A stretch of DNA of 47,631 bases. Source: Candidatus Krumholzibacteriia bacterium (lineage in GTDB: Bacteria; Krumholzibacteriota; Krumholzibacteriia; G020349025). The notes under the pieces were generated by a model, which searched no databases, was not told the DNA's origin, and saw only the letters and a program-made list of their open reading frames with translations. Made by a program: the position numbers and the translations under genes. Positions 2,087 through 33,415 of this stretch are shown in pieces (position 1 is the first letter of the stretch; each line of letters starts with the position of its first letter). The stretch spans positions 1 through 47,631 of the forward strand of contig JBFJHN010000001.1 in the NCBI GenBank assembly GCA_041613275.1, read 5' to 3'.

Positions 2087-2119
2087 CGTTCGGAACCACT
2101 CGATAGGAGACTGCCGAGC

Positions 2120-3304
2120 ATGAAACTCTCGAAGAACGAAATTCTCGATCTCATCAAGACCGGCACTGCCGAGTCGATCGGCGCGCTGACGTCGGCTCTC
2201 GAAGAGCTGAAGTCCTCAGTCGGCGACCCCGAGCCGACTCCGGTACCGGAAGAGACGTCGGCGAGTGTCGACTCCGACCGCTCGAAGACGGTCGGCGGCA
2301 TCGTCCGAGCGCTCGCCAAGAACGCGGGCGTCCCGTCGCTTGCCGCCGTGTGGGCGCAGAAGGCGTACGGCCCTGAGCACGACGTCACGAAAGCGCTACA
2401 GCTGTCCGACGAGGCTGCTGGCGGCTTCCTGATCCCGCCCGAGTATTCCGGCGAAGTGATCGAGCTGCTGCGCGCCGAAAGCGTCGTGATGCAGCTCGGG
2501 CCGCGCACGCTACCGATCCAAGAGGGCGAGCTGCGCGTGCCGCGCCTGTCGTCCGGGGCAACGTTCTCGTGGATGGCGGAGGGCGACAACGTCACGAAGA
2601 GCGAGCAGACGTTCGGGCAGGAGATTCTGCGTCGCCGCAAGGGCGCAGCGCTCGTGCCGATCTCGAACGACTTGCTGCGCGTCCGCAGCGGCGGCTCGGT
2701 CGACAGCTTCGTGACGATGGACATGGTCGGCGCGGCTGGTGCCGGTGTCGACCTCGCTTACATTCGTGGTTCCGGCGTGTCGAACGAGCCGAAGGGCTTG
2801 CTCAATCGCGGCGTCTCCAACAACGCGAACACGACCGTCAATCTGGCGAACGTCACCAGCGATCTCGTGAGCCCGCTCGTGCGCATGTGGGACGCGAACG
2901 TGAAGGGCCGGAACATCGGCATCCTCATGCCGCCGAGCGTGTGGGGCGGTCTCTACTCGGCGCGCGACGGGAACGGAAACTACGTCTGGAAAGACGAGAT
3001 GGATCGCGGCACGCTGCTGTCGTATCCGTTCCGCAAGACGAGTCAGATTCCGGGCGGCGTGAACTTCGAGCTGTACGTGGTCGACTTCGACAACGTCGTC
3101 GTCGGCGAAGCGGACGGCCTGCTCGTCGAGGCGTTCCCGGGTGCCGCGTACCACGACGGCGCAAGCGTGCAGAGCGGCGTGTCTCGCGACGAGACCGTCA
3201 TCCGCGCGATCATCTACACCGACATCATCGACCGCCACGCCGACGCCATTCAGATCGTGAAGGGCAACGGCGCGGCAGACTGGACGAACATCCCCGCCAG
3301 CTAA
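2120..3304 (+). CDS. major capsid protein, HK97 fold
   Basis: 394 aa with AGGAG at 2105-2109. N-terminal helix MKLSKNEILDLIK. Motif DEAAGGFLIPPEYSGEVIELLR is typical of HK97-family capsid proteins. Directly follows the protease. Confidence 0.9.
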   Translation: MKLSKNEILDLIKTGTAESIGALTSALEELKSSVGDPEPTPVPEETSASVDSDRSKTVGGIVRALAKNAGVPSLAAVWAQKAYGPEHDVTKALQLSDEAAGGFLIPPEYSGEVIELLRAESVVMQLGPRTLPIQEGELRVPRLSSGATFSWMAEGDNVTKSEQTFGQEILRRRKGAALVPISNDLLRVRSGGSVDSFVTMDMVGAAGAGVDLAYIRGSGVSNEPKGLLNRGVSNNANTTVNLANVTSDLVSPLVRMWDANVKGRNIGILMPPSVWGGLYSARDGNGNYVWKDEMDRGTLLSYPFRKTSQIPGGVNFELYVVDFDNVVVGEADGLLVEAFPGAAYHDGASVQSGVSRDETVIRAIIYTDIIDRHADAIQIVKGNGAADWTNIPAS

Positions 3305-3339
3305 GCGAGCTGACGCACTAGAGAAAAGGAGAACAACGA

Positions 3340-3789
3340 ATGATGAACTCCGACATCGGCGCGTACGTCGCCGCACTGAATGCGGGTCGCGCTCTCGGCG
3401 TCGTTGCTGGCGGCGCTGGCGATGCCGTCGAAGCCAACGGTCCGTGGGTCGAGCGTCCAGACGGCGCGATGAGCGTCGCGGTGTATGCGCTCTACCGGAC
3501 CACGCTCGCATCCGCCGAGACGCTGTCTGTCGTCGCGAACATCCAAGACGCCGCCGACTCGGGCGGCACTGGTGCAGCGGACTTCGGCACGGCGCTCGCG
3601 TCGACCGTTCTCGAAACGGGCGTCGTGACAGATGCCGAGGGCGCCGTGAAGATCGGCGACTTCAATCTGTCGGGTGCGCGTTCGCACATCCGTGCGCAAG
3701 TCACTCCCGACCTATCGGCAGGATCGATCGACACCGCCGATCTGATGTTCGTCTTCATCTTCGGAGGCCAGGACTCGCTGCCCGCGTGA
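3340..3789 (+). CDS. hypothetical head-module protein (149 aa; possible decoration/accessory protein)
   Basis: Strong SD (AAAGGAG) upstream, Ala/Gly/Thr-rich beta-type composition, located directly after the capsid gene. No motif recognised. Confidence 0.6.
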   Translation: MMNSDIGAYVAALNAGRALGVVAGGAGDAVEANGPWVERPDGAMSVAVYALYRTTLASAETLSVVANIQDAADSGGTGAADFGTALASTVLETGVVTDAEGAVKIGDFNLSGARSHIRAQVTPDLSAGSIDTADLMFVFIFGGQDSLPA

Positions 3790-3793
3790 TCTC

Positions 3794-4072
3794 GTGCGCT
3801 ACTACTGGATCATCTGCAAGGGTCTGAACCCGCCGTACGTAGTGGGCAATAAGCTCGCGTTCCCTCTTGACGAAGCCGTCAAGAAGGTGCGCAGCGGCGG
3901 GTTCGGCGTGCTGCCGGGTTGCGACGGCGAAGACGAGCTGCGAGCGGCGATCGAAGCTGACGAGATCGCAAGCGGCTTGCACCCACCGAGAGCCGGAGCC
4001 AAGAAGCGAACGACGAAGAAGCGCGCCGCGAAGAAGACCGCGAAGAAAAAGGCGACGTCGAAGGCGAAGTGA
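3794..4072 (+). CDS. small head-module protein with histone-H1-like Lys/Ala-rich C-terminal tail
   Basis: ORF-track 3794..4072 with a GTG start. High GC3. The last 27 aa are AKKRTTKKRAAKKTAKKKATSKAK. Confidence 0.55.
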   Translation: MRYYWIICKGLNPPYVVGNKLAFPLDEAVKKVRSGGFGVLPGCDGEDELRAAIEADEIASGLHPPRAGAKKRTTKKRAAKKTAKKKATSKAK

Positions 4073-4143
4073 GCGCGTCGTGCTGGTGCCGAGAGACCGC
4101 AGCGAAGCGGGTTACGTGACGAAGGGTTCGAAGGGAAAGCCAA

Positions 4144-4779
4144 GTGTCGATCGAAGTTCTGACCGAGCCGACGAGCAAGCTGCTCGTGACGCGCGTCGAA
4201 GCGCAGAAGCGCCTCGAAGAGTCGATCGGCACGGACGACGACCTCTTCGACACTCTCGTCTCGGCGGCGTCTGAGTACATCGCTTCGCGGCTCGGCTTTC
4301 CGCTCACGCGCACCGAGTACCGCGAGTACTTGCCGGGGTACGGACACCTCGAGCTGCGACTCTCGCGCTGGCCGATCGAGACTCCGTCGCTCGTCGAGTA
4401 CGACGGCAGCTCGCTCGCGCAGGGTACCGACTGGCGCGTGTCTGACGCCGAGCGCGGCGTCCTGTACTTCCCCGGCGGGACGTACTTCACAGCAGTTCGC
4501 GGCGATGGCCCCGGTGAGTTCGTGACGCCGTTCTACCGCGAGCACTACAAGGTCGAGTACTTTGCCGGGTGGGTCGAAGCTGGCGGCACTGTCGGCGCTG
4601 GCTCGGTGGCAGTTCCGAGCGACATCAAAGAAGCGTGCTTCGTCTGGATCGAGGAAGCGTACGAGGGTCTGTCTCCTGGCGTCTCTTCGTTCAGCGCTGC
4701 CGGTGTCGCGCTCTCGGCGAAAGCGAATGAGATGATCGACCGCTTGCTCACTCCGTACCGGAGGCTGATCGCGGCATGA
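4144..4779 (+). CDS. head-tail connector/adaptor protein (gp6-like)
   Basis: N-terminus LVTRVEAQKRLEESIGTDDDLFDTLVSAASEYIASRLG..L.LSRWPIETPSLVEYDG matches the gp6-like head-tail connector pattern. Position in the head-tail joining block supports this. Confidence 0.7.
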   Translation: MSIEVLTEPTSKLLVTRVEAQKRLEESIGTDDDLFDTLVSAASEYIASRLGFPLTRTEYREYLPGYGHLELRLSRWPIETPSLVEYDGSSLAQGTDWRVSDAERGVLYFPGGTYFTAVRGDGPGEFVTPFYREHYKVEYFAGWVEAGGTVGAGSVAVPSDIKEACFVWIEEAYEGLSPGVSSFSAAGVALSAKANEMIDRLLTPYRRLIAA

Positions 4780-19429: not shown

Positions 19430-19431
19430 GC

Positions 19432-19457
19432 GGGAGAGCCGCCGTCGCGGCTCCCCC
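19432..19457. terminator. GC-rich hairpin between convergent gene blocks (stem GAGCCGC/GCGGCTC, loop CGTC, flanked by GGG/CCCC)
   Basis: Read directly. Begins 3 nt after the TAG at 19427-19429. No U-tract on either strand. Confidence 0.45.
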
Positions 19458-19461
19458 GGTT

Positions 19462-19484
19462 GAGTCTGGCGATTAAACAGACTC
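19462..19484. terminator. second hairpin in the convergent gap (GAGTCTG / CAGACTC, 9-nt loop)
   Basis: Perfect 7-bp inverted repeat. Overlaps the TAA (19475-19473) of the minus-strand gene. Confidence 0.35.
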
Positions 19485-19904
19485 GGAGTGTGGTTGAGAG
19501 ATGGACGCGCGATCTTCCGACAGCATGCCGGGGTGGCGCGATTTGTCGCGGTCACGAGTGAAAGTGACCGGTGGGGAAAGGCGGCGGTACTTGCCCATAG
19601 CGACGAGACGTCTCTCGTATTGGTAACCGCCGCTGTTGGAAAGCGGATGGTCTCTGCCGAGATAGACGGTCCAGTTCCCGTCCGAAGCTCGGCGGCAGCG
19701 TCGCGGGATAACGCCGCCGCGCATGATGATGTGACTCGCGTGCATCTTCGGCACTCGGATGAACAGGCCGCCCATGTGCTTGTAGATGACGCACTCTTCG
19801 CGCGTGGCGTAGAGAATGGTCGCGGTAGCTTCTGGAATGTCGAACAAGTGCCGCACGATGCGCCCCGGCACGTGCACGCGCGGGTCGAGTCGACGCTTTC
19901 GCAT
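19473..19904 (-). CDS. hypothetical protein (143 aa) with degenerate HNH-associated motif
   Basis: ATG 19904 preceded by GGGAGAG. High GC3. The segment YLGRDHPLSNSGGYQYERRLVAMGKY resembles the ..HP.A...GYV.EHRLVM.. region of HNH_3-type endonucleases, but His is replaced by Arg and the downstream HNH half is absent. Confidence 0.5.
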   Translation of the reverse strand: MRKRRLDPRVHVPGRIVRHLFDIPEATATILYATREECVIYKHMGGLFIRVPKMHASHIIMRGGVIPRRCRRASDGNWTVYLGRDHPLSNSGGYQYERRLVAMGKYRRLSPPVTFTRDRDKSRHPGMLSEDRASISQPHSESV

Positions 19905-19923: not shown

Positions 19924-20256
19924 CTACCCAAGCTCGACCTCGTGTACGTCGACCGCGATCGGCGCGAGCGGTCGCATCATTGGTCTCGGCGCGTACTCGA
20001 TGACGTGCCAGAGCGTCAGGTCCTCTTGCGCGGTCGCGACGTACACCCATCCGTCATCGGCGACGAAGGGTCCGGTCTTGAGCTTGAACGTGCGCGCGTC
20101 GATCTCTTCTACCGACTCGTCAACGACGAACGTCAGCTTCACGCAGCGCAAGCAGTACGCAGCGTGAACGCAGCGCGCGCTGTACGGCAACCCGACCGCG
20201 ATCTGCGCCGTGGTGGCGCTCTCGACGTCGAGCTTCACTTCGATGACTCTGTTCAT
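19924..20256 (-). CDS. hypothetical protein (110 aa)
   Basis: ATG 20256 preceded by AGGAGAGAGA. Begins MNRVIEVKLDVESATTAQIAVGLPYSARCVHAAYCLRC... The longer ORF-track version (to 20394) has an Arg-rich, non-coding-looking N-terminus. Confidence 0.6.
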   Translation of the reverse strand: MNRVIEVKLDVESATTAQIAVGLPYSARCVHAAYCLRCVKLTFVVDESVEEIDARTFKLKTGPFVADDGWVYVATAQEDLTLWHVIEYAPRPMMRPLAPIAVDVHEVELG

Positions 20257-20307
20257 GCGTTTCTCTCTCCTGTTCTGACGGCGCAGAGCGCCTATTCTGC
20301 GAGTTCT

Positions 20308-20340
20308 GCCCCGGCAAGCTTTTGGATAGCCTGCCGGGGC
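20308..20340 (-). terminator. 9-bp perfect hairpin (GCCCCGGCA / TGCCGGGGC, 15-nt loop) in the only gap of the leftward operon's distal part
   Basis: Read directly. Lies between the 81-aa gene (ends 20351) and the 110-aa gene (starts 20256). No U-tract follows on the minus strand, so its role (attenuator, processing site or terminator) is uncertain. Confidence 0.3.
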
Positions 20341-20350
20341 CGATCGTCGC

Positions 20351-20596
20351 TTAGAGAGCCATTTCGGCTCTGATCTGTTCTCGTACGAAAGCATGCGCGG
20401 TGAGTCCGCACCCTACCGTCACGAGCGCGGCTTCGGTAGTGCTCCGGCACTCGTTCATCGTGCAGTCACACGTGAACTTGAGAAGTGCCGATTCGACGAT
20501 GAGAACGGCGAGATCGGACTTGCTCATGCCGTCGCGAAGAATCAGTCGATTGACCTCTTCGAGCGCGTCGGCGATGTTCTCGACGGTCGGTCTCAT
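20351..20596 (-). CDS. hypothetical protein (81 aa)
   Basis: ATG 20596 overlaps the upstream stop (ATGA) and is preceded by GGGAG. Begins MRPTVENIADALEEVNRLILRDGMSKSDLAVLIVESALL... Confidence 0.6.
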   Translation of the reverse strand: MRPTVENIADALEEVNRLILRDGMSKSDLAVLIVESALLKFTCDCTMNECRSTTEAALVTVGCGLTAHAFVREQIRAEMAL

Positions 20597-20847
20597 GGCG
20601 TGCTCCCGAGATGCTCGTCGAGCCATTCGGTCTCGGCTGTGAGCGCTTCGGAGCGCTTGTCGAACGGTCCGAGCAGCTCGCCGCTCATCGGTGACATGTC
20701 GGCAGTCCAGCGTCCGTCTTCGGTCGGCTCGACGTGCGACGCTCGGCGAACGGTCATCGCTCCGAGCGCGCGCGCGAGTCGCGGCGTGTCGACGGCTTCG
20801 GTGTAGATGAACTGAATGAGTCCATCGGGTGTGATCGCGATTCTCAC
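20593..20847 (-). CDS. conserved-looking hypothetical protein (84 aa; RASHVEP..W.ADM motif)
   Basis: GTG 20847 overlaps the upstream TGA (GTGA), 6 nt after GGAGGT. Sequence VRIAITPDGLIQFIYTEAVDTPRLARALGAMTVRRASHVEPTEDGRWTADMSPMSGELLGPFDKRSEALTAETEWL recalls a small family seen in other phages (from memory; function unknown). Confidence 0.6.
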   Translation of the reverse strand: MRIAITPDGLIQFIYTEAVDTPRLARALGAMTVRRASHVEPTEDGRWTADMSPMSGELLGPFDKRSEALTAETEWLDEHLGSTP

Positions 20848-21005
20848 GACCACACCTCCAAGCACGGCAGACAGAGCCATCTACCGCGACGCTGAGCGAC
20901 CGCCGCGACGACGGTCGACTTGAGATCGACGCAGCGCTTGCAGATCGGCTTGTCGAACTGCTTACGCTTGCGACGCTTGCGGTTGCCGCTGGTCTTCTTC
21001 TTCAT
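20844..21005 (-). CDS. small basic zinc-ribbon protein (53 aa)
   Basis: ATG 21005 overlaps the upstream stop (ATGA), with GGAGACG as SD. Sequence MKKKTSGNRKRRKRKQFDKPICKRCVDLKS...WLCLPCLEVWS contains two CxxC pairs. Confidence 0.55.
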   Translation of the reverse strand: MKKKTSGNRKRRKRKQFDKPICKRCVDLKSTVVAAVAQRRGRWLCLPCLEVWS

Positions 21006-21187
21006 CGCTGGTTCGTCTCCAGATTTGTCTGTTCGTTGTAGAACTCGGGCTTGCGCTCGCGCGAGCTTTCCGCTCCGAGCGCTTGTTCGATCGCGCGCGT
21101 GGCGTCTTCGCAGCTCGACCCTTCGAAGCCGTTCGCTTCGATCTGCACGCGACCCTGCTTGTCGATGGTGGCTGTGATCGTCTTCAT
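21002..21187 (-). CDS. DUF2997-family protein (61 aa)
   Basis: ATG 21187 overlaps the upstream stop, with a GGGGGGAG SD. MKTITATIDKQGRVQIEANGFEGSSCEDATRAIEQALGAESSRERKPEFY matches my recollection of the DUF2997 consensus (..I..dG.V...v.G..G.sC...t..le..lG......T.Ey). Confidence 0.65.
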   Translation of the reverse strand: MKTITATIDKQGRVQIEANGFEGSSCEDATRAIEQALGAESSRERKPEFYNEQTNLETNQR

Positions 21188-21381
21188 GCTGTAGCTCCCC
21201 CCATTGCTTGCACCCAAGCGATGTCTTCTTCGGTCGCGCGTCGCACGAGCGGGTCGTTGGCGGTTCCCACCTCTGCAGTGAATTGCTTGATGGCGGAGCG
21301 CTTGCTCCGGTACCAGCGGATGCCACAGCCGAGATCGCTCTGCACGTAGTAGGCGCGCAGTCCGTCCTTCGTGAGCTTCAC
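21184..21381 (-). CDS. hypothetical protein (65 aa)
   Basis: GTG 21381 overlaps the TGA of the DUF1257 gene (GTGA). Begins VKLTKDGLRAYYVQSDLGCGIRWYRSKRSAIKQFTAEVG... Confidence 0.5.
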   Translation of the reverse strand: MKLTKDGLRAYYVQSDLGCGIRWYRSKRSAIKQFTAEVGTANDPLVRRATEEDIAWVQAMGGATA

Positions 21382-21830
21382 CACGCACCCCCTTGCGAGA
21401 GCGTCAGCACGAGCGCGCCGTCTTCGTTGCGCTCTTCGTGCGTGACCGAGAACTCGTAGCCGATCGTCTCTTCGATGACGGCTTTCGCGTACTGCTGGCA
21501 CAGCTCGGAGCACTGCTTACCGACCTTCTCTTCGAGGCCGAAGCCGCCGCAGTAGAAGTCGTAAAGCAGCGTGTATCCCGGCTGTCCGTCGCGGCGCTTC
21601 ACGACGCCGATCTCGTACGCGTTCTTCTTGTCGGGAACGCGGAGCGCGTGCTCGCACTTGCCGAGATCGGTCGCCTTGAACCCATCCGGCAGCGGATAGT
21701 CGCCGACGTGGCGTCCGTACCAGCGGTACGTCTCTTTCCCTTCGGCGAACTCCAGGCCGCAGCGCTTGGCGGCAGTCTTGAGCGCGCTCAGGCTTGTGAT
21801 CTGAAGATTGACTTCGACGACGTGACTCAT
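21378..21830 (-). CDS. DUF1257 (Ycf35-like) family protein (150 aa)
   Basis: ATG 21830 overlaps the upstream stop, with an AGGAGG SD. MSHVVEVNLQITSLSALKTAAKRCGLEF...GYTLLYDFYCGGFGLEEKVGKQCSELCQQYAKAVIEE fits the DUF1257 pattern (MSH start, ..L.Q.YA.. C-terminal part). Confidence 0.75.
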   Translation of the reverse strand: MSHVVEVNLQITSLSALKTAAKRCGLEFAEGKETYRWYGRHVGDYPLPDGFKATDLGKCEHALRVPDKKNAYEIGVVKRRDGQPGYTLLYDFYCGGFGLEEKVGKQCSELCQQYAKAVIEETIGYEFSVTHEERNEDGALVLTLSQGGAW

Positions 21831-22513
21831 GCTGCGTCCTCCTGTCCGAGAATGGCGCATCGCGCCGCGTTCACTGAAGAGCGAGTGCCGACGTTGAGCA
21901 GGTCGTCGATCGTCTCTTGATTCGAGACGCGCGCGACGATCTGCTTGGCGATCTTGCGAGCCGACGCGACGGCGCGCTCGATCGAGCGCGCTTCTGGACT
22001 CTGCGCTTCGAGCACGCGGCTCGTCTGCTTGAGGCGGCTGGCGATGCGACGAATGTCTTTCACTTTGCCGGTCTCCATGGCGCGCTCCAGGTCGCGAAGC
22101 AGCTCGTCGAGTTCGGCGGCTACCGACTCGCGCGCTTCGCGATCGCTCTCGGCGATCTCGCCGCGAAGCACGCTGAAAGACACGTGGCTGTACTGCGCGC
22201 TGTCGTTGAACTCGGCGCACAGCGCTTGCGCTTCGGCGATCTTCTCGTCGAGCTGCTCGACGTTGTCGGTCGGGCAGATGATGCCGAACGGCGTCCAGAT
22301 GCTCACCGACTCGATGAGCGCACGCACGCGCGACTGCAGCTTCTTCGCCGCGTCGTACTCTTCGGCGTCGGTGATCTTGCGCTCGGTCTCCCACTTCGCG
22401 ATGTCGGTCGAGCCGTCGCGCTCGTGGTTGAGATCGACGCGCTCGTACTTGACGCCGCCGCGCAGCCGCGTCGACAACGCCACCAGCATGCCAGGGCGAA
22501 TCTTCTCGATCAT
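21827..22513 (-). CDS. hypothetical protein (228 aa), partly coiled-coil
   Basis: ORF-track 21827..22513, with ATGA overlaps at both ends. Begins MIEKIRPGMLVALSTRLRGGVKYERVDLNHERDGSTDIAKWETERKI... No motif recognised. Confidence 0.7.
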   Translation of the reverse strand: MIEKIRPGMLVALSTRLRGGVKYERVDLNHERDGSTDIAKWETERKITDAEEYDAAKKLQSRVRALIESVSIWTPFGIICPTDNVEQLDEKIAEAQALCAEFNDSAQYSHVSFSVLRGEIAESDREARESVAAELDELLRDLERAMETGKVKDIRRIASRLKQTSRVLEAQSPEARSIERAVASARKIAKQIVARVSNQETIDDLLNVGTRSSVNAARCAILGQEDAA

Positions 22514-22623
22514 GGTCTCTCTCCTTGGTCGTCAAGCGCGGCTTCGATGCCGCTGTCGCTCATCGTGAGCAGCGTTTCGAACGCTGCGCGGTAGCAGTCG
22601 CCGCTTCCGGTGGGGCCGCTCAT
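22510..22623 (-). CDS. micro-ORF (37 aa) coupled between AAA+ gene and 228-aa gene
   Basis: ATG 22623 overlaps the TGA of the AAA+ gene, and its own TGA overlaps ATG 22513. Sequence MSGPTGSGDCYRAAFETLLTMSDSGIEAALDDQGERP. Supported only by the double ATGA coupling. Confidence 0.4.
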   Translation of the reverse strand: MSGPTGSGDCYRAAFETLLTMSDSGIEAALDDQGERP

Positions 22624-24191
22624 TGGTCGAGCAGCGCGGCGCGCTGACTCCGCTTCGGTCGCGGCTTCTTCTTCTTGAGCGGCGTCGACGCCGGTCGCGT
22701 TCTGGACGACGCCCACTCGCGAAGGTCGGCGATGTCTGCCGCTCTCGACTTCGAGATCGGTGTCGTCGCGTCTGCGGCGGCGATGAGATCATCGGTCGAC
22801 AGCTCGCGCTCACCGTCTGCGAAAGCGCGGAACATGCCGCTCGGCACCAGCTCTGCTAGCTCTGCGCCGTTGAACTCGTGGCATGCGCTGACGACGGCTT
22901 CGAGATCGAAGTCGTCCGGGTTGCGCTTGAACTTCTTCAGCGTCGCTTCGAGAATCGCGACCGCTTCGACGTCGTTCGGCAAGTCCACGAAGAAGACGTC
23001 GTCGAACCGCCCCTTGCGGAACAGCTCTGGCGGCAGCGACGTGACGTCGTTCGCCGTGGCGATGACGAAGACCGGCTTCTCGTGCTCTTGCAGCCACGTG
23101 AGCACCGTTCCGAGAGCGTCGGAAGAGACGCCGCCGTCTTCGCGGCCCTTCGTGCTTCCGAGCGCTTTCTCGACTTCGTCGATCCAGAGCGCGCACGGCG
23201 CGACCGCTTCGGCGACGCGCAGCGCTTGGCGCAAGTTCGTCTCGCTGTCGCCGACGTACTTCGAGCGCAGCGCGCCGAAGTCCATGCGCAAGAGCGGGAT
23301 GTTCCACGCCGTAGGAATGGTCTTCGCGAGTAGCGACTTGCCGCATCCGGTCACGCCGAGCAGCAAGACGCCGCGCGGCGACGGCAGACCGTACGCGCGA
23401 GCCGACTCGGTGAGAGCCATCTTGCGCGACAGCGCCCACTCTTTGAACTCGTCGAGACCGCCGACCGCGTTCAGGCCGCGCGGGTCGGGGTCGAACCACG
23501 TGAGCACTTTCTCGCGGTCGATAATCTGGCGCTTCTGCTCGCTGACGACTTTCGGATCGACGACGCCGTCGCGCCTCTGCTTGCCGTTCATGGTCGCGAC
23601 GATCGAGTACGCGAAGGCCGACTCGGCGTCGATCGTGGTGAGTCCAGCGGCGGCGTCGACGACGTTCTCGCGTTCGCCGACGAGCTTCTTGCCGCTGAGC
23701 TTCAAGAAGTCATCGAGCAGCTCGCCGATCTGCTCGCGAGACGGAAGCGGCCATTCGATCGAGACCGTGCTCGGTCTCAGCGCTGGCGGGATGTCGCTCA
23801 CCGGAGTGAGCGCGACAACGGCGGCGAGCAGCTTCGGGTCGGATCCCTCTTGTAGATCGCGCGCAAGCGACTTCAGCATGCGCTCGATGCCGGGATCGCG
23901 CACCCACGGATGGACGTCGCGCAGAATCCATACTTCCTTGCGTGTGCGAGCGCGAATCCGCTTGACGACGTTCGGCAGTGACGGCGGTCCGTCTAGGTCG
24001 ACGGCGTCGCCGCTGTCGACTTCGGTCGCTCCGGTCGCGCAGTCCCACGCGATCGGCAAGTAGCCGCTCAGCTGCGCTTCGCGAGCGACCTCGTGCTCGA
24101 TGCGACGCTCTTCAGATGTAGTAATCCAGATGAACGTGTTCCGCGCTTTCAGATAGCAGCGGAAGCTCTTCTCCGGTTCGTTGGTCTTCAT
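22620..24191 (-). CDS. AAA+ ATPase, Ycf46-like (523 aa: ~250-aa N-domain plus classic-clade AAA module)
   Basis: Walker A GVTGCGKS, Walker B CALWIDEVEK, and IATANDVTSLPPELFRKGRFDDVFFVDLP (sensor-1/SRH). The whole C-terminal half parallels my recollection of cyanobacterial/plastid Ycf46. ATG 24191 was chosen because the upstream ORF-track extension is Arg-rich. Confidence 0.9.
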   Translation of the reverse strand: MKTNEPEKSFRCYLKARNTFIWITTSEERRIEHEVAREAQLSGYLPIAWDCATGATEVDSGDAVDLDGPPSLPNVVKRIRARTRKEVWILRDVHPWVRDPGIERMLKSLARDLQEGSDPKLLAAVVALTPVSDIPPALRPSTVSIEWPLPSREQIGELLDDFLKLSGKKLVGERENVVDAAAGLTTIDAESAFAYSIVATMNGKQRRDGVVDPKVVSEQKRQIIDREKVLTWFDPDPRGLNAVGGLDEFKEWALSRKMALTESARAYGLPSPRGVLLLGVTGCGKSLLAKTIPTAWNIPLLRMDFGALRSKYVGDSETNLRQALRVAEAVAPCALWIDEVEKALGSTKGREDGGVSSDALGTVLTWLQEHEKPVFVIATANDVTSLPPELFRKGRFDDVFFVDLPNDVEAVAILEATLKKFKRNPDDFDLEAVVSACHEFNGAELAELVPSGMFRAFADGERELSTDDLIAAADATTPISKSRAADIADLREWASSRTRPASTPLKKKKPRPKRSQRAALLDQ

Positions 24192-24289: not shown

Positions 24290-24326
24290 GGAGGGAGTCT
24301 CGGCATCGACCACCGAGACTCCCTCC
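24290..24326 (-). terminator. perfect 14-bp stem hairpin (GGAGGGAGTCTCGG / CCGAGACTCCCTCC, 9-nt loop) between the Zn-finger gene and the AAA+ gene
   Basis: Read directly. It is the strongest hairpin I found in the window. On the minus strand it is followed by AAAACG rather than a U-tract, so it could be a U-tract-less terminator, a processing site or a protein-binding site. Confidence 0.4.
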
Positions 24327-24379: not shown

Positions 24380-24652
24380 TCACGCGAAGACCTCGCGCTC
24401 GTACGGACCGCCGTCTTCGTCGTAGTCGAGCACGACGCGCGTCGGTCGCGAGCAGTCCTCGCAAGAGCGCGTGACGCCCTGGTCGCACATCGGACAGATG
24501 TCGCCGGTGATGAGCACGCCCTCGCCGCTGCACGTCTCGCAGTCGTCTTCGCTCCAGTGGTGCTCAAGCGGCTGCTCGACTTGACAGTCGCGGCAGATGA
24601 AAGTCTCGGCGCGCGTCACGACGCCAGAGTGCTTCGGCTTTTCTTTGTTCAT
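24380..24652 (-). CDS. small Cys-rich zinc-finger protein (90 aa) with DnaJ-type CxxCxGxG motif
   Basis: ATG 24652 with a GGAGGA SD and an ATGA overlap. Four CxxC pairs: CRDC, CETCSGEG, CPMC, CEDC. Confidence 0.65.
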   Translation of the reverse strand: MNKEKPKHSGVVTRAETFICRDCQVEQPLEHHWSEDDCETCSGEGVLITGDICPMCDQGVTRSCEDCSRPTRVVLDYDEDGGPYEREVFA

Positions 24653-24873
24653 CGTTCCTCCGAGAGTTCGATTCGTTCGACGCCGTCCGTGCCGCGCAGC
24701 TCGCGCGCTAGGTCTTCGGCGCGCTTGCTCCACGTCTCGTAACGAAGCCGAGTCAGATGTGTGATTGTGCCGTCTGAGTTCTTGACGTTCACTTCGCAAA
24801 CGACGATGTACCCGGCAAGCTGTCCGGGCCGAGTCGTGTCGACGAGCAAGCGTCGCTTCTTCAATGCTCCCAT
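24649..24873 (-). CDS. hypothetical protein (74 aa)
   Basis: AAGGAGG SD. Begins MGALKKRRLLVDTTRPGQLAGYIVVCEVNVKNSDGTITHLTRLRYETW... Confidence 0.65.
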   Translation of the reverse strand: MGALKKRRLLVDTTRPGQLAGYIVVCEVNVKNSDGTITHLTRLRYETWSKRAEDLARELRGTDGVERIELSEER

Positions 24874-24901
24874 TGGGCCTCCTTCGGTCGTTGAAGATCA
24901 G

Positions 24902-25285
24902 TTAGTACACCGAGTACTCAGCATCTTCCATCACCTGTCGCACGCAATCCGCGCAGGCAGGTTCGTCTCCGATCGCATCGTTCGCCCGCTGGTGGCAGCC
25001 GGGACAAACGGGCGAGCCGAACACGCGCTCGCAGAATGCCGCCCAGGCGACCTTCGCTGCGAACGGCAGGATCGCCGTCCAGAACTCAAGCCAGGGTGCG
25101 TTCGACGGCTCTTCGGCAGGATCGCCGAAGCCCATTGCCGCGTGATAGTGCGCCTCCTCGTCGAAGCTCTGCAGAAGGTCGCCAGCGAACCTGAGCCACG
25201 CCGGGTCGCTCTCGGTAGTGAGGCCGCGACTCGGCCAGAGCATCTGCTCGTCGATCAGGCGCTCGCGCATCGTGGTTTTCTCCAT
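24902..25285 (-). CDS. hypothetical protein (127 aa) with C-terminal CxxC...CxxC
   Basis: ATG 25285 with a GGAGG SD. Begins MEKTTMRERLIDEQMLWPSRG and contains ..VCPGCHQRANDAIGDEPACADCVRQ. Confidence 0.6.
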   Translation of the reverse strand: MEKTTMRERLIDEQMLWPSRGLTTESDPAWLRFAGDLLQSFDEEAHYHAAMGFGDPAEEPSNAPWLEFWTAILPFAAKVAWAAFCERVFGSPVCPGCHQRANDAIGDEPACADCVRQVMEDAEYSVY

Positions 25286-25381
25286 GTGAACCTCCGTTCT
25301 TGCGCGCACTCTCCAGCGCGCGCGGTTATGAGATGGAGCGAGAGTGAAACTGGCAACAGAGTCGAGCCGCGCGCCGCTCGG

Positions 25382-25939
25382 TCACGCGGCCTTCGCTTCG
25401 CGGTCGATCTCGCGCTCGAAGCGGTTGCGCAGCGCGTGCAGCTTGCGCTGCTCCTTCACGTTCAGCGTCGGGACCTTCCCGTACTTCTGCTCGGGGTGCT
25501 TCCCATCGCTCAGCGCGGTCGAGATGCTCGTTCGACTGATGGTGATGCCCAGCTCACCGCAGATGCGCTCGGCAATGTGGGGCGTGTATGTCTCGGCGTC
25601 GGTCGAGACACTGCCCATCCAGCGGCAGAGCGCCGAGCCGGAGTACTTGTCGAACGCAAGTCCGTGCTTCGTGCGCGCGTTCTTCTTCTTGCGGGTGGTC
25701 TTCTTCTTCGTCGTTGCCATGTGAAACTCCTCTCTCGCGACACGCACGGTCGCATCGTCCGACGCGACTTCGTACCACGTGTCTTGGTTGTTCGGTAGGT
25801 TGTGCTCGCAAATGAAGACTCGCTCTCCATCAGTGAGCGCGTAGAGACTCTGAACTGCTTCACCCCATGCGCCGATCACGACGAGTCGCTCGGCGTCGGG
25901 CTGTCGGTCAAGCCGTGTGCGGTCCGCTTTCTTGAGCAT
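25382..25939 (-). CDS. hypothetical protein (185 aa); possible second internal start at 25720 giving a 112-aa basic product
   Basis: First gene of the leftward operon. ATG 25939 has no SD, whereas the internal ATG 25720 has a strong AGAGGAG SD and begins MATTKKKTTRKKKNARTKHG... Both halves have coding-like GC3. Confidence 0.6.
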   Translation of the reverse strand: MLKKADRTRLDRQPDAERLVVIGAWGEAVQSLYALTDGERVFICEHNLPNNQDTWYEVASDDATVRVAREEFHMATTKKKTTRKKKNARTKHGLAFDKYSGSALCRWMGSVSTDAETYTPHIAERICGELGITISRTSISTALSDGKHPEQKYGKVPTLNVKEQRKLHALRNRFEREIDREAKAA

Positions 25940-26320
25940 CGATTAGATGCGCGTCGTGCAGCTCGGCTCTGATGTCAGCTTCACTCTCGCTTGCTTCGCT
26001 CACGACCACCGACTGCGTACGTCCCGACGCGCGTCCTCGCTGCTGTCGTGCTCCTAGTCTGCGCTCGCTGCGATGCTCCCTCATCGCTGCCGTACACGAG
26101 CGCCTCCTGGCGATCAGCAGCTCACCGCGCGCCCTGTTTCTCGGCGCGTTCCCTCGTGAGCTATTCGACTTTCAACGTAGAGTGACGACTCGTTCAGCTG
26201 GCGTACGGAGCAGAAGCAGACGCCCGATCTCTGAGTCTCCGGAGAGCGTCAGTACAGGGGGCGTTACCGCTCGGTCGCTGCATCGCTTTTGTCTCTCTCT
26301 CAACCAAGCTAAGCGTAGGA

Positions 26321-26393: not shown

Positions 26394-26423
26394 TTGACAG
26401 CGGCTTGTTCTATTGCGTATAGT
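26394..26423 (+). promoter_or_regulatory. near-consensus sigma70-type promoter TTGACA-N18-TATAGT for the rightward early operon
   Basis: -35 at 26394-26399 and -10 at 26418-26423. About 50 bp upstream of the AAGGAGG SD and ATG 26474. Confidence 0.6.
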
Positions 26424-30299: not shown

Positions 30300-30977
30300 G
30301 TGGCGAAGAAGAAGAAGTACCGAGTCTCAGAGCACAGCATCCACGAGTACACGTTCGACGAAGACAACCCGCGCAAGCGTGACGCGAAAGCTCGCTCAGC
30401 TCTTGAGCAGAGCTTGAGGCACTTCGGCGCTGTTCGCTCGCTTGGAGCAACGAAGGGCCGCGTCATCCGAGCAGGCAACGGCACGGCGCGTGCGGCTCTA
30501 GCTGGCGAGATCACCGAAGTGATTGAAGTTGAGACGGACGGCTCGCAGCTGGTCGTCGTGTACCGCCCCGATCTCGACGGTTCGAAAGCTGCGCTCTACC
30601 GCGAAGCCGACAACCGCGCTTCCGATCTCGCGACGTACGACTACGAGAGGCTCGCCGAAGAGCTGCGTCGCCGTGCGGAAGAAGCCGGAACGACGGAAGC
30701 GATCGAAGCTGTCGGATGGGAGCCGCATGAGCTTGCGCCGTTGCTCGGGGCGTGGACTCCGCAAGGAAAGACAAGCGAAGAATTCGTTGCGCAAAGCCCG
30801 CGACACTCGCGGTACTTTGTAGTGACGATGGAGCAGTACGAAGTCGTGATGCGCGCAGTCGAAGCAATGCGCCGCGTCGAAAGCGACGCGTCGATCAGCC
30901 CTGGCCGAGCAATGGAGCTGATTAGCGCCGACTACTTGTCTGGAGTGCAGATCGAAGAAGGAGGAGCGAGCGAATGA
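30300..30977 (+). CDS. ParB N-terminal-domain (ParB/Srx-like) protein, paralog 1; DpdB-like candidate
   Basis: FDEDNPRKRDAKARSALEQSLRHFGAVRSL..VIRAGNGTARAAL.. and YREADNRASDLATYDYERL fit the ParB-like nuclease-domain pattern. ATGA-coupled to queC. C-terminal motif GRAMELISADYLSG is shared with 36732..37211. Confidence 0.6.
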   Translation: MAKKKKYRVSEHSIHEYTFDEDNPRKRDAKARSALEQSLRHFGAVRSLGATKGRVIRAGNGTARAALAGEITEVIEVETDGSQLVVVYRPDLDGSKAALYREADNRASDLATYDYERLAEELRRRAEEAGTTEAIEAVGWEPHELAPLLGAWTPQGKTSEEFVAQSPRHSRYFVVTMEQYEVVMRAVEAMRRVESDASISPGRAMELISADYLSGVQIEEGGASE

Positions 30978-31753
30978 CGAATTTGACTCGAATCAGAGAG
31001 GAGTCAGCAAAGAGAAAAGCAGAGCGCGCGAAGCCAAACGTCGCCGTGCTTCTCAGCGGTGGACTCGACTCGACGTGTCTTCTTGCGTCTCTTGTTGCCG
31101 CGCGAGACGCATCAGGAGTGCGCCCATGCAGCGTGAGCGTCTACTACGGGCAGAAGCACGAGCGCGAGCTGCGAGCTGCACAGGCGGTCGCAGATTATTT
31201 CGGCATCCAGCACAAGACGATCTCGCTGTCCGATGCGCTTGAGCACCCTGGCTCAGCTCTGACAGACGACTGCGTCTCCGTTCCGCGCGGTCACTACGCA
31301 GCAGAGACGATGAAAGCGACAGTCGTGCCGCATCGGAATCTATTGATGCTGACAGCAGCGAGCGCGTTCGGGCTGAGCAGATTCGGCGTCTCAGCGGTCG
31401 CTTACGCAGCGCATGCGGGCGATCACCCTATCTACCCTGATTGTCGAGAGAGCTTCGTCGAAGCGGCTCGCAAGCTGCTCTCGCTGAGCGTTGACCGCGA
31501 GGTCGAGATCATCGCTCCGTACCTGAGCAAGACCAAGGGCGACATCGTGAAAGAAGGCGTGCTCTACAGTGCGCCATTTGCCCTCACGTGGAGCTGCTAC
31601 GAAGGCGGCGAGTACCACTGCGGCGAGTGCGGCACGTGCGTCGAGCGGCGCGAAGCGTTCCGGCTTGCTGGAGTACTCGACCCTACCGTCTACGCACGCG
31701 GCGCACGTGATCTCGACGAGTTGTTAGCGCTAGGCGAGAGTGACGCGCTCTGA
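30974..31753 (+). CDS. queC: 7-cyano-7-deazaguanine (preQ0) synthase QueC
   Basis: PP-loop LLSGGLDST, YGQKHERELRAA, VVPHRNLLML, IYPDCRESF, and the Zn site SCYEGGEYHCGECGTCVERREAF. Confidence 0.9.
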   Translation: MTNLTRIREESAKRKAERAKPNVAVLLSGGLDSTCLLASLVAARDASGVRPCSVSVYYGQKHERELRAAQAVADYFGIQHKTISLSDALEHPGSALTDDCVSVPRGHYAAETMKATVVPHRNLLMLTAASAFGLSRFGVSAVAYAAHAGDHPIYPDCRESFVEAARKLLSLSVDREVEIIAPYLSKTKGDIVKEGVLYSAPFALTWSCYEGGEYHCGECGTCVERREAFRLAGVLDPTVYARGARDLDELLALGESDAL

Positions 31754-31771: not shown

Positions 31772-32530
31772 GTGAGTGAGTTCTATTTTGCCTGGGTAGG
31801 GTCGGCTATCGAGACAACGATGAAGAACTGGGACTGGCACTCGAAGCCTCTGAACATCCTGGCCGCGATGCCATACGCGAGGTCATACAAGCAATTCGTA
31901 GACAAGACAGGTTTCAAGGCTCGCGCAACGATCCTTGATTCGGGGGCGTTCAGCGCTTACGCCTCTGGCGCGCCGACAGACATCGACGCCCTGATCTGCG
32001 AAGCCCGAACAGAAGCGTGGAACGAAGTCGTGGCGCTTGACGTCATCGGTGACAGCGCCGCCTCGCGCGAGAACGCTCTCGCGATGAGAGCTGCCGGTCT
32101 CGAAGTGATGCCGGTCTTCCACTACGGCGAGCCGTGGGAGCTGCTGTCGGAGTATTGCAGCAAGTTTCACCGGGTAGGTATCTCGTGCCGCTTCGGGGAG
32201 CCGAAAGGCGACGCGCTGCGATGGGTTGATCAGTGCTTCGCGCGAGAGTGGCCCAAACTCTTCCACTCGTTTGGGTGGGTCTCTCGCGAAGTCCTTCTTG
32301 CGGTGCCGTTTGACAGCGCGGATTCTGGAGCGTGGACAAGCAGCTTGAGGTTCGGCATTTGGCATGGGTACGGGCGAAGAAACCTGGGCTATCGTGTCAA
32401 AGCTAAGGATCATGACGCGCGGGTTGACGTTCAGCATTTTTGGGGATTGCAAGAAGAGCTGCGTGGGACGTGGGGCGCGATGCTTCGCGAGCCGCGCGCA
32501 GCCAAGGAGAGAGAGAATGAATCGAAGTGA
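31772..32530 (+). CDS. dpdA: DpdA-like DNA 7-deazaguanine transglycosylase (TGT superfamily, short phage type)
   Basis: ILDSGAFSAY, FHSFGWVS and FDSADSGAWTS correspond to the alDSGgFs / HgFGvK / saDSmaWs blocks I recall from phage DpdA proteins. Embedded among the que genes. GTG 31772 lies 11 nt after AAGGAG. Confidence 0.75.
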   Translation: MSEFYFAWVGSAIETTMKNWDWHSKPLNILAAMPYARSYKQFVDKTGFKARATILDSGAFSAYASGAPTDIDALICEARTEAWNEVVALDVIGDSAASRENALAMRAAGLEVMPVFHYGEPWELLSEYCSKFHRVGISCRFGEPKGDALRWVDQCFAREWPKLFHSFGWVSREVLLAVPFDSADSGAWTSSLRFGIWHGYGRRNLGYRVKAKDHDARVDVQHFWGLQEELRGTWGAMLREPRAAKERENESK

Positions 32531-32957
32531 AGAAGTCGAGCACCTTGGCAGACCGTCGACGGCGTCGATCGAGCTGCCGCAAGCCGTGCGCTTCGAGCAG
32601 ACGCCGAAACCGCTGGACGGTGGCGGCGCTGGCTTTCGGGTCACGCTGAACTGTCGAGAGTTCACGAGCCGTTGCCCGGTGACAAGTCAACCGGACTACG
32701 CAGAGCTGCGAATCGAATACGAGCCGCGCGGCACGATCATCGAGACGAAGTCGCTCAAGCTCTACCTGCAGAAGTTTCGTGACCGCGCAGCGTTCAACGA
32801 AGAACTGTGTCAAGCGATCTGCGACGAGCTGTTCGCGCTGCTCGCGCCCGGCATGCTCTCAGTCGAGATGAGCTTCGCGCATCGCGGCGGCATCAGCGTG
32901 AACCCGAAAGCCGTTCGGTGGACGGATGACGACGAAGAAGAGCGAGTCGCGCCGTGA
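32517..32957 (+). CDS. queF: NADPH-dependent preQ0 reductase QueF (unimodular type)
   Basis: ATG 32517 after AAGGAGAGAGAGA, overlapping the dpdA end by 14 nt. Catalytic-Cys motif SRCPVTSQPDY and NADPH motif ETKSLKLYLQKFR. Confidence 0.8.
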   Translation: MNRSEEVEHLGRPSTASIELPQAVRFEQTPKPLDGGGAGFRVTLNCREFTSRCPVTSQPDYAELRIEYEPRGTIIETKSLKLYLQKFRDRAAFNEELCQAICDELFALLAPGMLSVEMSFAHRGGISVNPKAVRWTDDDEEERVAP

Positions 32958-33415
32958 GCAAGCTCACGTGCACGCGCCGCCTGCAGTGGTGCATGGGCCA
33001 TCGGCTCGTCGGTCACGAAGGGAAGTGCTCGATGCTCCACGGACACAACTACGTCGGCCTGTTCGAAGCGTCGGCGAACGATCTTGACGACGTCGGCAGG
33101 GTGATCGACTTTTCTGTGCTGAAAGAGCGCATCGGTGGATGGATTGAAGAGCGATGGGATCACGGCTTCTTGCTAGCAGAAGGCGACGTTTCCGGTATGG
33201 CGGCGCTCGCGACGCTCGAAGAGCTTCAGCGAGCCGAAGGCGAGCGCCCGCAGAAGTCGGCGTTCTTGCCCTACAACCCGACCGCTGAGAACATCGCGCG
33301 CTATCTCGGCGAGCACGTCTGCGCGAATGTGCTCGCAGACGTCGGCGTGCGCGTCGATCGCGTGACGGTGTGGGAGACCGAGAACTGCTTCGCGACCTGG
33401 GAGCGCAGCCGATGA
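32954..33415 (+). CDS. queD: 6-carboxy-5,6,7,8-tetrahydropterin synthase QueD
   Basis: GTGA overlap. GHRLVGHEGKCSMLHGHNY (CxxxHGH motif) and ..DHGFLL.. with the TVWETENCFA end, typical of the PTPS/QueD fold. Confidence 0.85.
   Translation: MSKLTCTRRLQWCMGHRLVGHEGKCSMLHGHNYVGLFEASANDLDDVGRVIDFSVLKERIGGWIEERWDHGFLLAEGDVSGMAALATLEELQRAEGERPQKSAFLPYNPTAENIARYLGEHVCANVLADVGVRVDRVTVWETENCFATWERSR

Follow-up and report, generated by a model that had tools for sequence, protein, structure and literature searches.

A conserved five-component AAA+ module with DUF1257 and DUF2997 partners in phages and plasmids

Here, we analysed a stretch of 47,631 nucleotides from contig JBFJHN010000001.1, deposited as Candidatus Krumholzibacteriia bacterium (hereafter the window), and found that it encodes a conserved multi-component system of mobile elements. 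The window is a tightly packed phage genome (G+C 63%), in which tail-fibre and portal genes are present. The system lies on the minus strand and has five components: an AAA+ ATPase of 523 residues (22620–24191), a protein of 228 residues termed g3 (21827–22513), a DUF1257 (Ycf35-family) protein of 150 residues (21378–21830), a DUF2997 protein of 61 residues (21002–21187), and a protein of 84 residues termed g8 (20593–20847). Its gene content, the integrity of the ATPase motifs, the joint conservation of the five genes, and an alternative partner that is mutually exclusive with some of them show that the system is real. We consider it probable that the ATPase is a Cdc48-like hexameric unfoldase or segregase, encoded in a leftward non-structural block, that takes its specificity from the partner set and acts on a host or element protein complex, probably one associated with DNA.

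The ATPase matches PF00004 at 97 bits (cut-off 21) and phrog_8638 over its full length at 445 bits, and all features considered place it in the classical clade. It consists of a family-specific N-domain (residues 1–240) followed by one classical-clade AAA module with Walker A (G279–S286, including K285), Walker B (D338–E339), sensor-1 (N381), AAA_lid_3, and a second region of homology with two arginine fingers (R392 and R395). The pore loop reads K311-Y-V-G314, and its form across the family is K-[Y/W]-V-G. In an alignment of 120 homologues, the catalytic and translocation motifs are 95–100% conserved, a pattern from which the protein is predicted to be an active substrate-threading motor. The protein-remodelling machine that a first-pass annotation of this DNA suggested, next to possible host take-over or anti-defence roles, fits these fully conserved ATPase and pore-loop motifs. 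The closest solved structure to the AAA module is the D2 domain of p97/Cdc48 (E 4e-52), and more than 6000 homologues were found at E < 1e-20.

The N-domain defines a family of rather uniform size, since a search with this domain alone retrieved 1072 cluster representatives (50% identity clusters), nearly all of 500–560 residues. Inteins with LAGLIDADG or HNH homing endonucleases interrupt the AAA domain in about nine of the top 150 N-domain relatives (P0251, P0258, P0265, P0271, P0306, P0314, P0319, P0323, and P0385; 815–975 residues). Such inteins are typical of conserved, important phage genes, and they suggest that this is one of them. The first-pass annotation had placed the ATPase in the Ycf46 family. 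In a cluster look-up, distant N-domain relatives carried only the generic JGI/COG name "SpoVK/Ycf46/Vps4 family", and NCBIfam gave no Ycf46-specific match; the Ycf46 label, which derives from this generic name of the homologues, is plausible but unproven. Cyanobacterial plasmid proteins of 508 residues align to residues 13–493 of the query at 37–39% identity, which does not distinguish Ycf46 from a paralogue; that their genes adjoin DUF1257 and DUF2997 makes them the best, though indirect, support for the label.

The second component, g3, belongs to phrog_11021 (E 1e-22). A homologue is found directly 3' of the ATPase gene in 13 non-redundant loci with an ATPase at least 38% identical to that of the window, including gp95 of phage Catdawg. 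The AlphaFold2 model of g3 was built from five sequences, a word-indexed search having returned five homologues; it has a predicted local distance difference test (pLDDT) score of 80 and shows an N-terminal β-meander/α-β part and a C-terminal helical bundle. Foldseek related this model to a protein of Mycobacterium phage Dylan (E 2e-17) and, in BFVD, to phage DUF3150 proteins (E 7e-4, probability 1.0, template modelling score 0.38–0.46). At the level of sequence, g3 had no match to the DUF3150 model of Pfam (PF11348) at E ≤ 0.1, and an hhalign comparison of the g3 profile with a DUF3150 protein of Ca. Manganitrophus gave a probability of 0.2%. The modelled structure thus points to a protein that is DUF3150-like by fold and not by sequence. 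The tie between g3 and DUF3150 is also drawn because a DUF3150 gene appears to fill the part of g3 in a five-part set on a Ca. Manganitrophus plasmid, described below. Foldseek against the Protein Data Bank (PDB) gave nothing for g3 below E 0.1, only generic four-helix bundles, and PDB sequence searches with g3, DUF1257, and DUF2997 returned nothing meaningful.

The DUF1257, DUF2997, and AAA+ assignments had been made in the first-pass annotation without database searches, and profile searches bear them out, the first of them narrowly. The DUF1257 protein passes the gathering threshold of PF06868 (23.0 bits, cut-off 22.2, E 9e-5) with a borderline match that covers only model positions 29–102. 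Aligning it with 119 homologues strengthens the call: close homologues (55–59% identity) and about half of the 120 relatives carry PF06868 in precomputed annotation. The hallmarks M1-S2-H3 (nearly invariant) and G75, G82, D91, and Y114 (invariant) are common to 114–120 of the 120 aligned relatives; the DUF1257 protein of Pseudanabaena likewise begins with MSHFTT. The phage protein bears an insertion of 25 residues. Its AlphaFold2 model (pLDDT 84.5) has no PDB fold match below E 0.1 in Foldseek. The DUF2997 protein, by comparison, is assigned with a wide margin (PF11211, 64.3 bits, cut-off 24.1, E 9e-18; phrog_23133), residues 6–50 matching positions 3–47 of the 47-position model, and it has a single conserved cysteine, C26.

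The fifth conserved component, g8, carries the motif R-A-S-x-V...W...F..R..AL.aE..wL and matched no Pfam or PHROG family. Homologues were found in a prophage (L018, 53% identity), in loci L026, L039/L040, and L041, in Rhizobium phage L338C (gp054), in Pseudomonas phage UF_RH6 (orf113), and on the Ca. Manganitrophus plasmid, mostly right after DUF2997. In the low-G+C viral contig L039, DUF1257, a zinc-ribbon protein, DUF2997, and g8 (1136–4401) occur with no AAA+ gene within 5 kb; just upstream are a protein of 416 residues that is PAPS-reductase-like by eye only, a ParB-like protein, and a DNA ligase.

A profile hidden Markov model for each component was searched across 49 related loci, and the five genes were found to recur together. 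Neighbourhood linkage was approached from both the ATPase and DUF1257. From the ATPase side, in 30 loci, DUF1257 never occurs with a family member unless DUF2997 is next to it. From the DUF1257 side, in a scan of IMG/VR run with a type-C reference sequence, the ATPase gene is immediately upstream in nine of 11 loci and DUF2997 is downstream in all 11; NCBI and ENA contigs show the order AAA-DUF1257-DUF2997. In the DUF1257 loci examined, DUF2997 adjoins DUF1257 or stands one or two small open reading frames (ORFs) away; the only exceptions are the two cyanobacterial plasmids, whose DUF2997 gene lies elsewhere in the cluster. That the three families are recurrent neighbours, which the first-pass annotation had stated, is confirmed by this survey, which recovered the triad from numerous phage contigs, from three cultured phages, and from several plasmids.

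The module occurs in four configurations in phages and metagenome contigs. The order AAA, g3, DUF1257, DUF2997, g8 is found in the window, in the prophage L018, and in a contig binned as Kofleriaceae (L026). In Rhizobium phage L338C (gp050–054), Rhodobacter phage RcTiptonus (gp60–63), and Pseudomonas phage UF_RH6 (orf118–113), the order is AAA, X2, DUF1257, DUF2997, with g8 next in L338C and UF_RH6; X2 is a protein of about 200 residues that is unrelated to g3 (hhalign probability 0.1%). Large low-G+C phages have AAA, DUF1257, DUF2997 within replication modules, and in L009–L013 a CxxxCxxC radical-SAM-like protein of 320–350 residues is encoded one or two genes downstream of DUF2997. In the fourth configuration, found in mycobacteriophage cluster O and seven other metagenome phage lineages, AAA and g3 are joined by a protein of 110 residues. 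In addition, a full-length AAA+ relative (33% identity) is present in Streptococcus satellite phage Javan368 (L029, 3962–5539), and the partner proteins were not detected nearby.

The 110-residue protein of the fourth configuration begins with an invariant M-P-C-[DT]-T, contains a TDxCAYR motif, carries a sequence resembling an Asp box (HSHDGGxTW) in its C-terminal part, and matched no Pfam family. It is encoded in L001 (3573–3914, Catdawg gp93), L002–L007, L019, and L020–L022, and in L020–L022 it lies upstream of the ATPase gene. Wherever DUF1257 and DUF2997 are missing, this protein accompanies AAA and g3, and the two partner sets never occur together in the loci examined. It replaces DUF1257 and DUF2997, with or without g8, in phages whose ATPase is 45–52% identical to that of the window (38% in cluster O). 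Because the ATPase and g3 of the first and fourth configurations are close, the two sets of small partners look like interchangeable solutions to one task. Homology among the partners was sought by comparing the 110-residue protein with DUF2997, DUF1257, and g8, and g8 with DUF2997, and was rejected, as none of the comparisons was significant (probabilities 0.4–40%); they have in common only a short, hairpin-like "I-x-V-x-x-D/N-G" start.

The module is also found on plasmids. A tblastn search returned 63 plasmid records with a full-length AAA+ relative, and we inspected eight neighbourhoods; the module is carried by plasmids of four phyla (Cyanobacteria, Firmicutes, Actinobacteria, and Nitrospirota). 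On the plasmid of Ca. Manganitrophus, all five components of the window are present: AAA, DUF1257, DUF2997, a DUF3150 gene so annotated by PGAP, and then g8. Paenibacillus polymyxa has AAA, DUF1257, DUF2997, and a Fer4_12 radical-SAM gene; plasmids of Rhodococcus and Arthrobacter have AAA, a protein of 141 residues, DUF2997, HhH, and an NrdG-like radical-SAM gene; that of Bacillus thuringiensis has radical-SAM, a protein of 151 residues, HhH, AAA, and DUF2997; and that of Treponema has radical-SAM and AAA. Among cyanobacteria, the Pseudanabaena plasmid carries GrpE, Hsp70, DUF1257, an ABC-like (AAA_21) ATPase, a hypothetical protein, DUF2997, and AAA, and the Geminocystis plasmid carries RloB, DUF1257, DUF2997, a zeta toxin, and AAA. 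The NrdG-like radical-SAM proteins (Fer4_12, about 200 residues) and HHH_3 membrane proteins recur beside the plasmid AAA and DUF2997 genes (L043–L045, L047, and L048).

Could these genes be only a packed array of unrelated small early genes, whose co-occurrence stems from the shared ancestry of a few phages? The window itself offers some grounds for this explanation, in its overlaps and orphan genes (see below), and the large "type C" phages, being related to one another, do not provide independent evidence by their synteny. Against this, the linkage is kept in elements with no other synteny, at G+C contents from 33% to more than 60%, in phages of Actinobacteria and Proteobacteria and in plasmids of four phyla. 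It is also retained where gene order is rearranged, for example in Pseudanabaena and B. thuringiensis, whose partners lie upstream of AAA. Because the linkage outlives the loss of synteny, changes of order, and this range of G+C, chance or simple shared descent is disfavoured, and we regard an array without a functional module as very improbable.

The boundaries of the conserved set differ from those of the gene run in the window. The nine minus-strand ORFs between 24191 and 20351 that the first-pass annotation had described were all recovered by translation, and all eight junctions between them are ATGA or GTGA overlaps of 4 nt. For each of the nine, the G+C content at third codon positions (GC3, 0.69–0.86) exceeds that at first and second positions (GC1 and GC2) in the called frame, a GGAG-type ribosome-binding site precedes most of them, and four identical metagenome contigs carry the same gene calls. 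The further claim of a nine-gene, fixed-stoichiometry assembly is overstated, since only five of the genes are conserved together and four are orphans. Overlaps of 4 nt are the commonest junction type elsewhere in the window too, and the plus strand has at least another 12; such junctions being a general feature of this genome, eight in a row are notable yet no special evidence for a nine-subunit complex.

For the four remaining ORFs of the run, no homologue was found in any related locus searched. The weakest is the ORF of 37 residues (22510–22623, minus strand), which has ATGA overlaps at both ends and fills the gap between the ATPase and g3; it lacks a Shine-Dalgarno sequence, its GC2 (0.58) is atypical, and it has no counterpart in related loci, in which the second gene comes straight after that for the ATPase. 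It is doubtful as a gene, or else lineage-specific. The ORFs of 65 residues (21184–21381; GC3 0.73, with GGGGG upstream) and 81 residues (20351–20596; GC3 0.70), both on the minus strand, are lineage-specific and have no family match. The fourth, on the same strand, encodes a basic protein of 53 residues (20844–21005; GC3 0.83) whose CxxC...CxxC pattern, as read from the sequence, is zinc-ribbon-like; an unrelated CxxC...CxxC protein of 87 residues lies between DUF1257 and DUF2997 in L039.

How might the five components work together? By analogy with Cdc48/p97, PAN, and FtsH, the ATPase would form a hexamer, and its K-[Y/W]-V-G pore loops would use ATP to thread a protein substrate, leading to its unfolding or its extraction from a complex. 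DUF1257, DUF2997, g8, and the DUF3150-like g3 may be dedicated cofactors of this motor, its clients, or both; they would bind the motor and define what it acts on, so that specificity would come from the N-domain of the ATPase, from DUF1257-DUF2997-g8, and from the DUF3150-like protein. The system probably acts early in infection, because it lies in a leftward block beside a divergent early/replication region. A DNA-associated protein complex of host or phage would be the likely target. In support of this proposal as a whole we count the chaperone and DNA context of the module, namely Hsp70 and GrpE in Pseudanabaena, DnaJ and ParB upstream of the module in the prophage L018, replication and recombination genes around it in large phages, and, in the window, ERF and replication genes on the far side of the divergent region. 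Neighbours are often DNA-metabolism or chaperone genes in other loci as well: a DNA ligase in L019 and L039, and Whirly, RNase H, RecA, and ribonucleotide reductase in large phages.

Several points weigh against this proposal. The small proteins could be substrates of the motor rather than its adaptors. The gene after AAA is not always g3, being X2 in three cultured phages, and large phages have neither; two IMG/VR loci carry DUF1257-DUF2997-g8 without AAA within 5 kb. The N-domain is possibly a degenerate AAA-like module: it contains no Walker A, and the suggestion draws on sub-threshold matches, namely an hhalign alignment of residues 149–224 to an AAA lid (probability 9%) and PDB profile matches to dynein and RFC (E 0.1–1). 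The genomic contexts also vary widely, from replication modules and the vicinity of lysis genes to defence-island-like plasmid regions, and these neighbourhoods do not reveal the target.

The known machines to which the motor is most similar differ from it in several respects. Like Cdc48/p97/VAT, PAN/Mpa, and FtsH, the ATPase has the classical pore loop and second region of homology, its AAA module is nearest to the D2 domain of p97/Cdc48, and, like Cdc48/p97 with cofactors such as Ufd1-Npl4, it is encoded with small dedicated partners. In contrast to Cdc48/p97, it has a single active AAA module, and its 240-residue N-domain shows no detectable double-psi barrel or known cofactor-binding domain. 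Unlike FtsH, it has no protease domain, and it has no HbYX tail and no proteasome partner. DUF1257, DUF2997, the DUF3150-like protein, and g8 are unrelated to known AAA+ cofactors; for none of these four partner families has a related structure been solved or a function described.

The radical-SAM genes beside the plasmid copies raise the alternative of a maturation system, in which DUF1257 and DUF2997, with g8, would be an effector, possibly bearing a metal, an Fe-S cluster, or a radical, and the ATPase its assembly or activation chaperone, like CbbX, CoxD, or NorQ; in many plasmids, the NrdG-like radical-SAM protein would modify or activate the same client. The Fer4_12/radical-SAM gene of about 200 residues is clustered with the module in Paenibacillus, Rhodococcus, Arthrobacter, B. 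thuringiensis, and Treponema plasmids, and the CxxxCxxC protein lies one or two genes downstream in large phages with the triad, but the cassette is without a radical-SAM gene in the window, L018, L026, and the three cultured phages. The near-invariant N-terminal Met-Ser-His of DUF1257, the conserved cysteine of DUF2997, a DUF2997-like ORF with a His-rich tail in L008, and the CxxC...CxxC protein of the window operon also speak for maturation. However, beyond H3 no histidine or cysteine is conserved in all DUF1257 proteins (position 94 is histidine in one clade and alanine, cysteine, or lysine in that of the window), and structure searches of the PDB with the DUF1257 and g3 models detected no cofactor-binding fold. 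Classical-clade AAA+ proteins with aromatic pore loops, moreover, are usually unfoldases and not MoxR-type insertases. The cyanobacterial link of DUF2997 and ycf35 to the ferredoxin fed7 (PMC4284462) adds to the case for maturation, which we nevertheless judge unlikely.

This link comes from cyanobacteria, in which DUF2997 adjoins ycf35 (DUF1257) in a DUF2997-ycf35-fed7 cluster (PMC4284462). On cyanobacterial plasmids, the full-length AAA homologues (37–39% identity) lie beside DUF1257 and DUF2997, whereas on cyanobacterial chromosomes AAA is not reported next to ycf35, whose neighbour is the ferredoxin. In freshwater red-algal plastids, ycf35 and ycf46 are among several genes that were lost together (PMC5940233), and Ycf46 has been described as stress-induced and KaiC-interacting (bioRxiv 10.1101/2025.07.21.665879). 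Since these phages infect heterotrophs, the module cannot serve photosynthesis or CO2 use in them. We tentatively consider that the module belongs to an undescribed ancient system of phages and plasmids in at least five bacterial phyla, with Ycf35, and possibly Ycf46, as its cellular relatives, and with the interchangeable 110-residue partner and optional radical-SAM/HhH additions as parts of it; taken jointly, these claims are a possibility that we would not call likely.

Another explanation is that the module serves mobile elements as a defence against phages or plasmids (superinfection exclusion), with the ATPase as sensor or effector, comparable to IetAS or other ATPase-based defence systems. 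IetAS and SgiAT of SGI1 pair an AAA+ ATPase with an S8 protease, in defence or as a toxin-antitoxin system. SgiA of the SGI1 SgiAT system is named a SpoVK/Ycf46/Vps4-type AAA+ protein and is encoded on a mobile element (PMC10954446), and the ATPase family of the window is likewise SpoVK/Ycf46/Vps4-named by JGI and found on mobile elements. PADLOC matched IetA at 68.7 bits, but over residues 262–493 only, that is, the generic AAA domain; the NCBIfam IteA model gave 57 bits against a cut-off of 510, and the N-domain and partner set differ from those of IetAS. Identity with a known defence system was rejected, as PADLOC gave only weak IetA and TRIP13 matches confined to the AAA domain. A counterpart of the S8 protease IetS was not found, since family searches gave no peptidase domain in any of the ten operon products, and the cassette contains no recognisable effector such as a nuclease, protease, TIR domain, or pore.

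The surroundings of some copies do agree with defence. The Geminocystis copy is near a RloB-family protein, an ATP-binding protein, and a zeta toxin, that of Ca. Manganitrophus is near HNH, JAB, and Fic, that of Pseudanabaena is near the ABC/AAA_21 ATPase, and L018 is a prophage in which the module is beside an integrase. Nevertheless, the module is also present in the non-temperate cluster O phages (PMC4351075) and within the replication modules of large phages, and the inteins point to a core phage function. A scan of GTDB representative genomes with two peptide patterns found a single relative, on a contig of a Kofleriaceae metagenome-assembled genome, which says little about chromosomal defence islands. 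Overall, a defence or exclusion role appears quite unlikely to us, and a Cdc48-like unfoldase or segregase remains the reading that we favour.

The cluster O phages offer one of the closest known counterparts. The ATPase of Corndog (gp96) is 38% identical to that of the window over its full length, and Catdawg gp95, an orthologue of Corndog gp95, is a homologue of g3 (E 1e-23). In both cluster O and the window, the module is part of a long leftward non-structural operon; in contrast to the window, cluster O has no DUF1257, DUF2997, or g8, and has the MPCDT/HSHDGG protein of 110 residues instead. By mass spectrometry, Corndog gp96 was detected only in infected-cell extracts, and gp95 mainly in once-purified virions, most such proteins being taken as contaminants from lysed cells (PMC4351075).

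The leftward transcription unit of the window is longer than the nine ORFs. Two more genes on the same strand, encoding 110 residues (19924–20256, GC3 0.86) and 143 residues (19473–19904, GC3 0.74), are called on the identical metagenome contigs and have no PHROG match; the unit ends at a strong intrinsic-terminator-like hairpin (19431–19458, minus strand) with a 12-bp stem of which 10 pairs are G-C. Upstream of the ATPase gene there are four genes on the same strand, encoding 185, 127, 74, and 90 residues (24380–25939). The product of 90 residues (24380–24652) has eight cysteines in close pairs, with several CxxC motifs including CETCSGEG, and is DnaJ-type zinc-finger-like; a DnaJ-domain protein is also encoded upstream of the module in L018. 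The gene for the 185-residue protein (25382–25939), the first of the leftward block, is flanked by an inverted repeat of 41 nt (25337–25377 and 25951–25991, 83% complementary).

In the 188-bp gap upstream of the ATPase start there is a perfect inverted repeat of 14 bp (GGAGGGAGTCTCGG / CCGAGACTCCCTCC) with a 9-nt loop (24290–24326). The minus-strand sequence 3' of it is AAAACGTTGACG, not a T-run, and the repeat may serve as an operator, form an RNA structure, or act as a U-less terminator dividing the leftward block in two. Across the divergent region, which contains a sigma-70-like promoter (26394–26423), the plus strand carries an ERF recombinase, replication genes, and the set QueC (30974–31753), QueF-like (32517–32957), and PTPS/QueD (33032–33415). 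This set suggests 7-deazaguanine modification of the phage DNA; the radical-SAM enzyme QueE was not seen in precomputed Pfam annotation of the window. A megablast search with 25 kb of the window found no match among GenBank phages, indicating no close cultured relative there.

The first-pass annotation had singled out this operon as its best candidate for an undescribed system, and we found no paper describing an AAA+/DUF1257/DUF2997 module in the literature searched. Its presence in cultured phages of Mycobacterium, Pseudomonas, Rhizobium, and Rhodobacter and on plasmids of Bacillus, Paenibacillus, Rhodococcus, and cyanobacteria marks a widespread, neglected family. The system as a whole is uncharacterised, and its motor is a known kind of machine, hence its activity is directly testable. 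The natural swaps, of DUF1257 and DUF2997 for the 110-residue protein and of g3 for X2, are built-in experiments for dissecting it. If the module were a routine phage chaperone, its interest would be moderate. It nonetheless provides a genetic handle on DUF1257/Ycf35, and possibly on Ycf46, whose roles in cyanobacteria and plastids have been obscure for decades. If the ancient system that we propose tentatively is real, the module would represent a new function of mobile elements, such as establishment, anti-defence, or replication-linked protein extraction, and would give access to the biochemistry of the ycf genes.

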